DNA from: Eledone cirrhosa
Taxonomy: Eukaryota
Assembly: GCA_964016885.1 (NCBI GenBank)
Contig: OZ024750.1
Location: 1,860,001 to 1,924,000 of the forward strand
Length of the DNA: 64,000 nucleotides
Direction of reading: 5' to 3'
Every line of letters starts with the position of its first letter. Positions within the stretch are counted from its first letter, which is position 1. The notes under the pieces were generated by a model. That model saw only the letters and a program-made list of their open reading frames with translations, had not been told where the DNA came from and did not search any database. Shown here in pieces: positions 1,873 to 50,671 of this stretch. Position numbers and translations under genes: made by a program.

Positions 1873-2008
1873 AGAGGGTAGTAGAGTGGGTAATAGGAGA
1901 AAGTATGACTCCGACGGCAGAACTCAAGCCGTTTCGACGGCTATTTCTGTCCAGAAATACCCGTCGAAACGGCTTGAGCTCTTCCGTCGGGGTCATACTT
2001 TCTCCTAT
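1873..2008. mobile_element. (TA)n-embedded fold-back element, family C; other copies at 22625-22845, 23860-24021, 27931-28036, 34893-34975 and 43737-44049
   Basis: 116-bp palindrome 1893-2008 centred on GACGGCTATTTCTG..CAGAAATA(C/G)CCGTC, plus a shared one-sided extension. Confidence 0.8.
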
Positions 2009-2126
2009 ATATATATTCTTTGCATTTGTTTTGTTGAAGCAACTTGTGAGAAAGTATAAGATGAAAGAGAATACTGAGAAGATGTTTTCGAGCAACGTGT
2101 CAAGGACTGGATATATTTCAACAAAC

Positions 2127-2258
2127 CTGGTTTATATATTGTGTTACAGTAAGTGACAGGATCTAAGCCCGTAGGACAGAAACACTGGCAAACACCGCCC
2201 ATCTTTAACACAAACCCATCATTAAGACATTTATGTTTGAAGGTGACACACTGCTGAC
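2127..2258 (-). CDS. Astacin protease exon 8 (EGF-like module)
   Basis: ttttgtag|QQCVTFKHKCLNDGFVLKMGGVCQCFCPTGLDPVTYCNTIYKP|gtttgt. Six-Cys EGF-like pattern; 132 nt, phase 1 to 1. Confidence 0.88.
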
Positions 2259-2599
2259 CTACAAAATATGATAAATACACACACAGACACGTATAAAGAG
2301 TCATTCCATCTACGAGGTCAAACATTTAATAAGGTAGAGATTTACAAGTATTTATTCATAGATAATTATATTTCACGTGGTTAAGAAATTGACTGATGTT
2401 TTTGTTAGGGTAGTTAATTCCCATGAACAAACAAAACAACGAGGAAATACTATCACTAAAATTATTCTATATAAAGGACTATAATTAACATAATGACATA
2501 AATTATGATAATGATTTAAATAATATAATGATATAATTACTCAGGTCAGAGTAATTATTGTGTCTCAGTAGAGTTTTCATAGAAACAGTCATTATCATT

Positions 2600-2968
2600 C
2601 GGGCCTTTACGATCTGTGTTCAAATCCCGCCGAGGTTAACGTTGCTTTCATCATTACGAGGTCGATAAAATAAAGTACCAGTAATACACTGGGATAATTG
2701 CTGACCATGTGCCAAAAGGAGAAACAATTATTATTATCATTAGGGCTGTGGATTGGCAGAATTGGTAGAGCGTCGGACAACAAGCTTTGTTGCATGTAGT
2801 TACGGCTTTTTACGGTCTGAGTTCAAATCCTGCCGAGGTCAACTTTGTCTTTCATCCTTACGGGGTCGATAAAATAAAGTACCAGTAACAGACTGGGGTC
2901 GATTTAATCGACTTTCCTCTCCACAAAAATTGTTGGCCTTATGCCTGAATCTGAAAACATTATTATTT
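2600..2968 (+). mobile_element. Two tandem SINE family 1 copies
   Basis: Two head-to-tail copies with B-box, core and (TTA)n tails. Confidence 0.85.
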
Positions 2969-45570: not shown

Positions 45571-47689
45571 TATAATAACATTGATTTTTTATTCCTTTTG
45601 AAAATTGCCTTAGTTACGTCGACATTTTTTAAATTTAAAATCTAATTACTTTGCGGCAATTTTCTTGTTTTTTTTTTATTTGGGGGGTATTTATTTTCTT
45701 TTACTTTCCACTGATGCCTTAGTAAATACAATACATTTGTGTGAGTGTTTATAATAAAATATCTATATATGTACTTTCATTCACACCTTTGTGAAAAAGT
45801 AGCCTGGGTCATTATTTAGACACAGCTGTTTCCATATGTTATATAGATTAACAATATTTTTCTAAAACTATGCTATTTCAATGGATTGTTCTTCCTTTTC
45901 AACCAACTAAAGTAGATAATTAGACGTGCTATTATTTAAATAAATAAAAGAAAGAATTAATTTTGTTCACATATACGTGAAAGTAAGTGTGTACACAGAT
46001 ACATATCATGTTTACCAATGAATATGATTCGATAAAAGGAGATTTCTCCCTTGCCAACAGCAATAGTTCGAGTAGATAACCTTTGGAGAGCAAGGTAAGC
46101 AGTTAAACTATGATTTTACTAACAATAAATCAGACGCTAGAATAATGGTTTACAATTATCGTAAACCATCATTTAAATGGTGCATTGCTAAAATTTACAA
46201 TGAAACATATACTTAAACACTTCCTATGTACCAAAAGTGCAATAATGGATATAAGATAGAAAAGAACCACATTCGTCTTGATTCTAATTCCGATGTAATT
46301 TGATATTCTATGAAATACAATATTTCTTGTGATGAAGGATGATAGTTTAATTAAAGCATTGTATTGATTAGAAAGAAATGGCGTGTTTATAAACTATGGA
46401 ATTATTGTCAATGAAACAATAAAGCAGGGCGAAAAAATTATAGATAAAATTTGTTATTAATGATTAATGATATTGGTATCAAAGTAGATTGTTGCTAATA
46501 AAGTAGTTGAGATAATAACGTGTTTGTAGATAATAAAATACTTAAAGATAATGAAGTGGTTTATAGACAATAGAGTGTTTGTAGATAATGTTCTTTTGGA
46601 AAGATTCAATTTTTTAGATCTTAAATGTTGTTTTTAGCTACAGGTCTTACTAAGCTGGACAAACCTGAAATCAAAGGCATTCTAGCCGTGAACATCCCAT
46701 CGTATTCGTGTGTGTGTGTGTTTTGGGGGGTTAGGCAATCTTCACCGATCTACATTATGCAATGTGTCTTCCCTATTGTGAACCGATGGTTTGGTTATTT
46801 CTAGCAGATCAAGCGACTACACATAGTCTAAAGTTTATCTCGAGTTCGGAGGATGATCAGGCCAATACAGATCCCACCATCGGAATGTTAAACATCCAGC
46901 TATTACTGGTACTCATTTTCATCTGAGTATACTGGAGCAACACACAACCCAGTCCACGAATCGAACCCACGACATTATGATCGTAAGTCCAACACCCTTA
47001 CCACTAGGCCATGCTTCACTGTAATCTACAACGTAGATAATACCGGCCTTATATCAGCTCTGAAGGCGTGGCTTCTTATCATTAATACTAACATATGCTT
47101 TACAACTGACATACCCATCGGAGTTATCTCCCGTGTTAGCTCCATTTAAAAACTAATGTTAACTAAGTCCAACATTTTTTCTCATAATGACAGAAGCAAC
47201 GCTGCGATTATTTCTGATGTAAAACCCATTGGAAACAATAGATTTCATTAATTTATTACAAAGTATATAATCAATGCTTCTTTATAATTAAATTATTAAA
47301 TAATCTCATTTGTCAATATCTCTTAATGTTATTTTACAAAGATATATATAGTAAGACAGTTATTATAGAGCGACAGAATAAAATGGCAGAAACTATAAGA
47401 CAACTGAGGAAGGCAAAATAAAGCTAAAGAGTTTAGAGTTGTCTTTCTTGTTTAATCGGCCATAGAATAATTATACTTTAGCTAACCTTTAATATTTTTC
47501 TGCTAATCTTTATATTTAACCCAACTACGAGTATGTCGGGTGTTGAAAACATTAGAAATTATAAAAAAAACTTTTATAATTATCAATGCTTTGAATCTCA
47601 ATCATTGATGTTATTTAACTGGTAGCCTCAGATATTCAGGACGTATCGGAGGGTTCTTGCTGTTCCCGGCAAGCAATATTATTATTATC

Positions 47690-48223
47690 ATTGTGGATTG
47701 ACAGTATCGGTAAAGAATCGGACACCATGCTTTGCAGCATAGAGTTACGGCCCTTTCATCCTTACGGGGTCGATAAAATAAAGCACCAGTAACGTACTGT
47801 GGTCGATTTAATCGACTTACCCCTCCTCCCAAATTACTGGCCTTGTGCCTATACTAGAAATCATTATTATTATTATTATTTTATTATTACTATTATTATA
47901 TGTAGATCGAAGTTAGCCTTTCACCCTTAGCAAGTTAATCAAAGTACCAAAACGATTTAATCGACTTTTCTCCTCCACTAAAATTGCTGGACTTGTGCCT
48001 AAAGTAGAAACAAATATTATATGTAGGGCGGATTGGCAGTATCAGCATAGAGTTACGGCTCTTTACGTTCTGAGTTTAAATCCTGTCGAGCTTAGCTTTG
48101 TCTTTCATCCTTAGCAAGTTGATAAAATAAAGTAGGTACCAGTAACGTACTGGGGTCGATTTAATCGACTTTCCCCACTCCCAAAAATGCTGGTCTTGTG
48201 CCTAAAGTAGAAACAATTATTAT
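47690..48223 (+). mobile_element. Tandem array of three SINE family 1 copies
   Basis: Three head-to-tail units separated by (TTA)n tails. Confidence 0.85.
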
Positions 48224-49966
48224 AAGTAGATTGAGGGAGAAATAGAAAATAGCTTGAATACACCTGGTCGGAGATTAAAGGTGAAATATCACTAGAGGCT
48301 TTATATATTTAATGGTCAGGTAAATATGTTGTCACAAGAATGTGGTAGGATGTCTTACATTAGTAATTATTCACTTACTGTCCAGAGGGACATAACCTAA
48401 TCATACTTATAAACTCCTGCGCCTATATATGTATGTGTGTGTGAGTGTGTGTGTGTGGGCGCGCGTGTGTGTATGGGTGTGTATATGTATGCTTTTTGTG
48501 TGTATATGTATGCTTTTTGTGTGTGTATGTATGTACGACGTATCTGTATGTGTGCGTATATTAGCGTGTATGTTTGTGTGTATATATATGTGTATGTAAG
48601 CATGTATCTATGAATGTGTATGTATGTATGCGTATAGGAGTATATGTTTGTGTGTATGTATATATGTGCGTGCGTGTGCGTGTGCGTGTGTCTATGTATG
48701 TGTGCGTGGATGTGCATATATGTATGTATGTTTGAATGTGTGCGTGTGTGCATGTGTGTATGTACATTAGTGGTGTGCGGGTATGTGTGTGTATATATGT
48801 ATGTGTATGCGTATATGTAAGCATGAACGTGTGTGTGTATGTATGCATGAGTGTGTATATTCATGTGTGTGTGTGTGCGTGTGTGTGTACGTATGTTTGT
48901 ATGTACGTATATGTGTGTGTGTACACATGTATATATATATGAGATTAAGAACAGAAGTGAATCCTATCTTGAACAAAAGTTATCGAAACTAGATCAATAA
49001 TTCGATTGTTTCTGGTTACGGAAGCAGGAAACGTGGAATAAATGATAAAAAAAAATCAGACGAGAAGAAACTTCTGATAAAATAATAAATCCAATATGGC
49101 GGCACAAGTTTGTTTATTTATAACTCAGATGACGCAGAAATGTTTCAGGATGAACAATTATAATGTTAGATGGGGTATCACAAAATGAAAACCACGTGCA
49201 ACAGATAATAAAAAAAAAATACAATACAATACAAACAAGTACAGGAATAGTTTTATTTCAAATGATAGCGACACTAAATCCATGCTCTTTTCACAAATAC
49301 ATAGACACCAAACGAATGGTAAATATACTGTACCAGTTTTGCTAGAAACTGTATTGGTTTTCCAGAAATGTATCTTAGCGTAATCTAAGAGTGCCGCTGA
49401 AAAAAGCCAAACGATGAGATATGATACGAATATACGAATATATCAAAAACAATGAATGTACTAACTACTAAGGCAGACTAATATATACGAAAGAAAAGCA
49501 TAAATATATTTTACTGATGAGAATGTGTAATGGCAAGGCAACCTCCATCACCATTATCAAATGGTTTATAGTAATGTATCAAGTTGAATATATATTTAAT
49601 GGTTATGACATTGAAAAGGAAAAACATAGAGAGATGCTGGAAAGAAAATTAATAATAGTGTATGACGAATATATATTTATATATATTATATATATATATA
49701 TATATATATATATATATATATATTTCATACATGGATAAAGGAAACAAGTTAGGAGAAGAGTTTCGCTTCGTTTGAAAATTCTCAGTCATCGTAATTATGA
49801 CACGGACCATAAAGAAAACATTCTAATATACACATATATATATATATATAGAGAGAGAGAGAGAGAGAGAGAGAGAGAGAGAGAGAGAGAGAGAGAGAGA
49901 GAGAGAGAGAGAGAGAGAGAGAGAGAGAGAGAGAGAGAGAGAGAGAGAGAGAATAGAAGACGGAAA

Positions 49967-50671
49967 ATCAGTGATGCCTCTGAACTCAATTTATTGTGTG
50001 GTACAATTGTTTCCACGGCGGACAGCTCGAGACGCGATCATTGTGTGGATCTGTCTGATTCTGGACCCGCAGGTTCGACGGACACCGCCTATGGAAACAT
50101 CTTAGCTACCATCAGACATATATATATATATATATATATATATATACTATATATATATATATATATATATATATATACATACATACATACATACATACAT
50201 ACATACATATATATATATATATATATATATATACATATATACATACATACATACATACATATATATATATATATATACATACATACATACATACATACAT
50301 ACATACATACATACATACATTACATATATATATACATACATACATATATATACATACATACATACATACATATATATATATATATATATATATATATATA
50401 TACATACATACATACATACATACATACATTACATATATATATATATACATACATACATATATACATACATACATACATACATATATATATATATATATAT
50501 ATATATATATATATATATATATATATATATATATATATATATATATATATATATATATATATATACATATATATATATGTCAGACAGATCCGCACAATGA
50601 TCGCGTCTCGAGCTGTCCGTCAGGGAAACAATTGTAACACACAATAAATTGAGTTCAGATGCATCACTGAT
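49967..50671. repeat. ~92-bp inverted repeat arms (49967-50058/50580-50671) separated by a short unique segment and microsatellite
   Basis: Arms are reverse complements; each carries GAAACAATTGTA on its outward-reading strand. Confidence 0.85.

Follow-up and report, generated by a model that had tools for sequence, protein, structure and literature searches.

Head-to-head Stubs of Hydra-clade Penelope-like Retroelements in Eledone cirrhosa Are Probably Joined at the Capped 5′ End of the Element RNA

Short Palindromes as Probably Joined Retroelement Stubs

The window analyzed here is a stretch of 64,000 nucleotides (nt) from Eledone cirrhosa (assembly GCA_964016885.1, contig OZ024750.1, positions 1,860,001 to 1,924,000 of the forward strand), which contains short palindromic repeats with parts of hammerhead ribozymes, here divided into families C, D, and E. 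The palindromes of families C and D are probably head-to-head stubs of Hydra-clade Penelope-like elements (PLEs), in which two separately primed complementary DNAs (cDNAs) were joined at a junction that likely marks the capped 5′ end of the element RNA. An initial annotation of the window had explained them as half-hammerheads, formed when a nascent cDNA snaps back on the stem II hairpin of the ribozyme and primes itself, so that the products resemble MITEs (miniature inverted-repeat transposable elements). Their origin as retro-products rather than MITEs is supported by the asymmetric ends and the retroelement parents found, and such palindromes did arise repeatedly in independent families, but the proposed folding at stem II does not agree with the position of the junctions.

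Abundance and One-tailed Architecture

Inverted repeats of family C are located at 1893-2008, 22627-22762, and 43926-44048 of the window, and those of family D at 976-1123 and 34415-34547. They are real and far above chance. In the 3.0 Gb genome, the centre of family C gave 13,869 exact matches with a gap of 0-30 and 2,283 with a gap of 31-60 (controls 0), the centre of family D gave 1,231, and the tight centre of family E 33. The detailed sets comprise the first 50 C and the first 50 D places, all on contig C1.

As initially annotated, GAAA, stem III, and UH are present on both arms and the terminal extension is confined to one of them (49/50 C and 48/50 D copies); in family E, one tail was found in 8/15 copies and two tails in 0/15. 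This extension is the PLE "tail," which measures 80 nt in family C and, in family D, 86 nt. There are two fixed 3′ ends, with and without the tail, placed 80-86 nt apart and occurring one per arm, and both also terminate long copies. The C tail ends enter a microsatellite in 181 of 189 cases, which points to (TA)n targets. Long head-to-head pairs again carry one tail, with arms unequal by up to kilobases. An inverted 5′-truncated copy with the tail at one end, as found here, is the insertion architecture of endonuclease-containing (EN+) PLEs; any target-site duplication would be masked by the (TA)n on either side. The centres are not the same from one copy to the next, and they turn up again in separate subfamilies. 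A head-to-head pair with both arms extending past the tail into the open reading frame (ORF) was also observed (L350/L351, G000:C3:118185764-118185960).

Arm Ends and a Common YAGT Site

Element positions take the G of GAAA as their reference, -1 being the base that precedes it. Among the C arm ends, 97/100 fall between -11 and -20 and peak at -12, -14, -17, and -18, whereas the 5′ strand of helix II is found at about -44 to -52; the centre of the palindrome is therefore not the stem II hairpin of the parent. In family D the arms end mostly at -18 to -25 (mode -25, 19/100) and retain the core and stem II. On each D arm in the window there is a separate small stem II with a core-like CAGAAGA (1036-1062 and 34467-34495), and the junction lies 5′ of this core. 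The junctions of family E are placed approximately 112 nt upstream of GAAA. Hence, the absence of the 5′ hammerhead half, initially reported as general, applies to the C palindromes, whereas the arms of D and E retain a degenerate core.

Common to the junctions of all three families is a YAGT site, whose A lies at -18 in family C, at -25 in family D, and at about -112 in family E, and the arms end at this site or a few bases short of it. The site resembles an initiator. Family E likely follows the same rule as C and D. In C, the site is placed within the hammerhead fold, 3′ of the variant core UUGANAA, in a helix II about 55 nt long. The half-hammerhead look of the C stubs results from this placement, since the core is 5′ of the junction site; with the putative RNA start inside helix II, the stubs can hold only the 3′ half of the ribozyme. 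In the literature, the Penelope promoter is located in the pseudo-long terminal repeat (pLTR; PMC2377424) and a pyrimidine/purine start is mentioned (PMC9341517).

Junctions of C (n = 50) show an overlap of 0-2 nt in 33 cases and 1-2 inserted bases in 8, and 7/50 centres are loop-less perfect palindromes. Among 30 C copies that continue into the ORF, 23 contain the ribozyme half; 14 of these stand in tandem, and among the remaining 9 there are 6 with a start at -15 to -19. Parsing the junctions of long pairs as a control resolved 8 of the 17 usable ones, too few to use, with 0-6 nt of microhomology or A/T-rich insertions of 1-6 nt. At some C junctions of contig C1 (e.g., 18731497, 55270248, and 77816587), long A/T runs directly follow the -18 site, as if the reverse transcriptase (RT) had stuttered on the T run or, at the end of its template, had added A's.

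An Extra G at the Site

Single-arm copies joined directly to (AT)n were used to score the base preceding the A of the site, tallied by eye from the first 100 matches out of 259 for C and the first 100 out of 164 for D. The C copies showed G in 60 cases, C in 4, A in 8, and the parental T in 28, and the D copies G in 45, C in 3, A in 18, and T in 34. At control positions of the same T|A context, G was found in 1/100 (of 117 matches, 100 listed) and in 0/19 (Fisher P = 2e-22 and 3e-7 against the two controls). The background ratio of G to C after ATATAT and before A is 385:371, that is, about 1:1.

The palindromes with both arms at the site agree with this pattern. By eye, among 50 listed places per family, single-base centres are C:G in 17/18 cases of D and 8/9 of C, and the longer D centres have the form C...G in 16/32. 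The window copy at 43925 is such a case, with an extra base on both arms. An extra G is the mark of cap copying in L1 (PMC11702581, PMC9341517), and the extra G at the YAGT site is likely the mark of a reverse-transcribed cap, which would make the site the capped 5′ end of the element RNA.

Parent Elements and Their Clade

Longer C copies run upstream through the 3′ untranslated region (UTR) into an ORF with RT and GIY-YIG endonuclease (EN). The C parent L150 consists of a pLTR, 786 open codons, and a second pLTR, with an inverted copy in front, and its extension passes directly into the ORF. The D parent L277 has the same arrangement, and the two proteins are 54% identical. Both are single ORFs in which the RT is followed by a C-terminal GIY-YIG, the motifs being located in the sequence. 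In detail, DKT replaces DKG, LRWR is present, and GxKF/Y is absent from both. A CxCx5C linker as well as CxxC and CxH around the E/N of the EN are found in both parents, without CCHH (the C-terminus of D was taken from L278). Pfam gave no match for the ORF of L150 or L277, and sequence searches of NCBIfam and PDB were likewise uninformative; the best homolog carries the GIY-YIG domain PF01541. By these motifs, families C and D are assigned as the ends of Hydra-clade PLEs, whose defining features are given in PMC8557442. A Neptune-like assignment of the ORF was dropped, as the Hydra motifs fit instead. In family E, no RT/EN ORF was found in 45 loci, and the E tail and the head-to-head form are present.

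Some copies have a mixed composition. L075 and L140 share a foreign 5′ sequence that precedes the C ORF, with the fusion in the middle of the tail, and they may represent a chimeric family. In L366, L370, L377, L379, and L383, a D subfamily meets the UTR of another element at about 70 nt upstream of GAAA, and this UTR contains a C-like UUGAGA motif.

Variant Hammerheads

The initial annotation expected a hammerhead-bearing parent with CUGANGA. A hammerhead-bearing parent exists, but the core of C is of the U3-A8 type, UUGANAA. The C parent shows CCCC-YUGANAA before helix II (7,104 genome matches, control 13). Among the 100 matches listed, position 7 is occupied by all four bases and position 8 always by A, and the flanking core bases are kept. 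U3-A8 is a known hammerhead variant of PLEs (PMC4209133, PMC3088659). C3 together with A8, a mismatch that should weaken cleavage, was seen in 22 of these 100 cores, about a fifth by eye. A search for a CUGANGA parent returned 45 matches, mostly chance junctions or foreign sequence, the real core being the variant.

The C parent has the three helices around a conserved core of a type I hammerhead, with a clear z-score in one of the three copies folded: the minimum-energy fold of L146 is the three-way junction (z -2.4), L150 is similar (z -0.3), and L151 does not adopt it. In the covariation analysis, 90% of the cells were paired and there were 0 two-sided changes, in 14 close copies. Rfam gave only hairpin and microRNA (miRNA) look-alikes and no hammerhead family among the matches listed (150 of 155 and 150 of 179).

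The pLTRs of C and D do not carry the canonical hammerhead core. In D, the core is CAGAAGA with a stem II of 3 bp (21,615 matches), and position 4 is A in 100/100 of those listed. The core of E, read by eye, is CCGUCGA, a weaker hammerhead look-alike. With U4A in D and two changes in the core of E, the ribozymes of both families are probably unable to cleave.

Formation of the Palindromes

In the probable course of events, the YAGT site of the 5′ pLTR would be the place where transcription starts. The endonuclease would nick both strands of (TA)n, and one target 3′ end would prime reverse transcription at the tail boundary and the other at the inner start site, near the 5′ end of the RNA; these steps are modeled on Poseidon PAc. 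In vitro, this PLE protein nicks and extends both strands, starting on uncleaved RNA at two internal sites with the tail between them (PMC11167929). Both cDNAs may then run off the capped end after 55-140 nt, often copying the cap as C, and their ends would be trimmed slightly and sealed by host end-joining. The longer arm is unbiased, i.e., 21 versus 18 with 10 equal in C, and 22 versus 18 with 8 equal in D. Chimeric arms were found in three of the 30 inspected candidates (74 found), in which a tailed and a tail-less arm of different subfamilies are joined (L306, L320, and L321). Of the remaining candidates, 26 were single-site changes or unclear and one was without a tail.

A wider and more tentative possibility is that PLEs routinely make a retrovirus-like "strong-stop" cDNA, which is normally transferred to the 3′ pLTR, the palindromes being failed cases in which two such cDNAs are joined. 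The RT would start near the 5′ end of the RNA, run off the cap, and jump to the corresponding part of the 3′ pLTR, regenerating the pLTR and the partial tandem. The hammerhead may then define the end of the 3′ pLTR, and a start within the ribozyme would stop the 5′ copy from cutting.

Several observations weigh against two separately primed cDNAs that run off a single cap site. The arms belong to the same subfamily in 56/62 classifiable copies (13% expected at random; 26/88 unclassified), as would also be expected from a single self-copied cDNA, and the few chimeras could be the outcome of later recombination or conversion. None of the 23 D copies that continue into the ORF with a ribozyme half begins at -25, which speaks against a single dominant start in D. 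Many arms stop 1-7 nt short of the site, so that trimming or several starts are needed, and some junctions contain templated insertions of snap-back type (L105, and 22625 in the window). The other phase of the microsatellite shows no excess of G (85 T, 9 C, 5 G, and 1 A), a result that we attribute to TA microhomology. The start site is deduced from DNA sequence.

The subfamily and snap-back observations also favor a rival with one cDNA, which would run off the capped end, prime itself (or let the RT jump onto the cDNA) with almost no pairing, and copy back to the short end; the junction would still be the RNA start. Self-priming on an antisense template has been proposed for inverted, palindromic PLE copies (PMC3846280). 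This course is nevertheless unlikely: it does not readily account for the 7/50 loop-less centres and the unbiased longer arm, the extra C is found on both arms in half of the multi-base D centres, both fixed ends are also the 3′ ends of long copies, and copies of mixed subfamily exist. Identity between arms does not decide the matter. The predicted excess of arm-to-arm over copy-to-copy identity holds when subfamilies are pooled, with 2.6 against 6.2 differences in 53 nt, but fails within one subfamily (1.3 vs. 0.9), where 2 variants are shared by both arms against 84 in a single arm. As arms are no closer than separate copies within a subfamily, this test fails to separate one cDNA from two.

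Improbable, too, is a joining of truncated cDNAs that arose because the RT stalls at the base of helix II's inner hairpin or because the site is a 3′ splice acceptor (YAG). The inner hairpin in the C folds closes at about -14, both sites are pyrimidine-rich with AG, and an intron that ends at helix I can be present in PLE pLTRs (PMC4209133). However, an extra G at one particular position, immediately next to (AT)n, is expected from neither version, no shared upstream exon was seen before the site, and D is without such a hairpin at -25. The snap-back on stem II, as initially proposed, could draw on the C junction being within the extended helix II and on the missing 5′ half. It is very improbable, given that its predicted product, with the parental helix II loop kept behind the inverted arm, had 0 matches genome-wide against the 13,869 and 2,283 palindromes, and occurred in none of the 50 longer centres listed. 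In addition, helix II complementarity is not used at the junctions, which occupy different positions with respect to the ribozyme in the three families and fall on the extra-G site. The arms of D and E retain their 5′ halves. MITEs of the ordinary kind, or a palindromic unit copied whole, would fit short, high-copy repeats with inverted ends and TA flanks. Their probability is similarly slight, since the ends are asymmetric, the copy-specific centres recur in separate subfamilies, and the parents are retroelements; fixed symmetric termini with a fixed internal sequence from a DNA transposon were not found. Palindromes are a known artefact of long reads, and fold-back errors of the assembly might be suspected. 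This is hardly credible here, as the arms differ and are asymmetric and strand-switch joints occur at the same places in contigs of a public run (possibly from the same sample).

Elements of the Window

The window has a GC content of 25-46% with abundant (TA)n, and contains C and D stubs beyond those initially listed. The C palindrome at 1875..2010 has its tail arm on the minus strand, with the tail shortened to about 20 nt, a junction at about 1949, and arms ending at -14 and -17. At 22626..22843, the tail arm is on the plus strand and begins from -18 (22705), the short arm ends at -17, and a templated duplication lies in between. At 43847..44049 (tail arm on minus), both arms end at -18 (43984 and 43989) with CCTG in between, i.e., what appears to be an extra cap-type base on each arm. 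The head-to-head insertion at 23862..24021 has a short arm on plus from about -15 and a tail arm on minus that is truncated before the ribozyme half. In the C copy at 27933..28035, a short arm on minus extends to -18 (27991) and is fused to the final 45 nt of the tail on plus, and a tail-only stub on minus is located at 34895..34975.

In family D, the diverged palindrome at 976..1123 has a CAGAAGA-like core and a small stem II on both arms, with the junction at about 1046-1048 (-20/-25). The one at 34413..34640 has its tail on plus and its junction at about 34485 (-28/-20). Other D copies are a short arm on minus joined to a truncated tail on plus (60188..60310), a short-arm stub on plus (52023..52074), and a tail stub on minus (43633..43739) that abuts a tail stub of family C (43737-43774).

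The 49967/50671 pair, annotated at first as one palindrome, is not one: its arms (49964-50058 and 50580-50674) are split by a tail fragment and a microsatellite of about 460 bp. It comprises an E copy at 49953..50120, in which a short arm on minus, with a degenerate hammerhead-like core (50067-50085), is fused to the final ~35 nt of the E tail on plus, and a separate short-arm stub on plus at 50578..50680.

Further repeats were observed in the window. A head-to-head palindrome of another family at 28655-28850 carries on each arm a core reading CUGAAGA together with GAAA (28710 on minus and 28797 on plus), and consequently its junction lies 5′ of the core. More head-to-head repeats, with CUGANGA on one arm only, are found at 1560-1739, 22052-22213, 29990-30170, and 35243-35466, and probably belong to other PLE families. 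Single hammerhead-like motifs with a CUGAUGA core, stem II, and GAAA occur at 1317-1345 and 23179 (minus). A dispersed family of about 200 bp, resembling short interspersed elements (SINEs), is located at 1-148, 5168-5361, 17155-17348, and about 25 other places, with a small palindrome of this family at 15713-15781. Tandem arrays with periods of 17 bp and 24 bp are placed at 8814-9580 and 37323-37967, respectively.

Comparison with Known Systems

The parents of C and D share with the C-terminal EN+ PLEs of the Hydra clade (Craig et al. 2021, PMC8557442) the single ORF, DKT, RWR in place of RWK, the CxCx5C linker, the lack of CCHH, the CxxC and CxH around the E/N of the EN, and the (TA)n targets. 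Unlike those described there, they have variant or degenerate hammerhead cores, a repeat unit of about 3.1 kb, and tens of thousands of stubs. U3-A8 hammerheads of PLEs (Cervera and de la Peña 2014, PMC4209133; Perreault 2011, PMC3088659) resemble those of C in the UUGANAA core, the extra bases before helix II, and the palindromic loop III, whereas helix II of C is about 55 nt long and holds the putative start site, and some C copies are C3-A8. A preprint (10.64898/2026.07.22.740005) deals, in the text available, with tandem retrozymes and not with these elements.

Poseidon PAc (Frangieh et al. 2024, PMC11167929) likewise has two internal RT starts with the tail between them, immediately inside the hammerhead's ORF side. 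It belongs to a different clade, and the accessible parts of that study neither explain inverted copies nor report copying of the cap. In L1 twin priming (PMC11702581, PMC9341517), two primed cDNAs also lead to an inversion and an extra G is found at complete 5′ ends, but the L1 cDNAs cover different parts of the RNA, whereas here both cover the same 55-60 nt.

The way in which inverted PLE copies are formed and the pLTR is regenerated has been described as an open question (PMC2377424, PMC8557442), and our search of the open-access literature found no publication linking the PLE inversion point to a capped RNA start. The tens of thousands of copies provide a base-exact, testable rule, in which the inversion point would be the capped RNA start, with one RT start site per arm. 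In practice, annotation tools may take such stubs for MITEs, miRNA hairpins, or broken ribozymes.

Head-to-head copies with a tail at one end and a palindrome at the junction are shared with the PLE insertions that carry an inverted pLTR and an optional tail (Arkhipova et al. 2013, PMC3846280; PMC8557442, fig. 2). Unlike those insertions, as far as they are described in these sources, the stubs of Eledone cirrhosa are only 150-230 bp long, have tails of 80-86 nt instead of 30-40, and have a junction tied to a cap-marked site. The inverted pLTR with a tail is thus the standard, already known footprint of PLEs, and the rule of a cap-marked junction is the useful result here.

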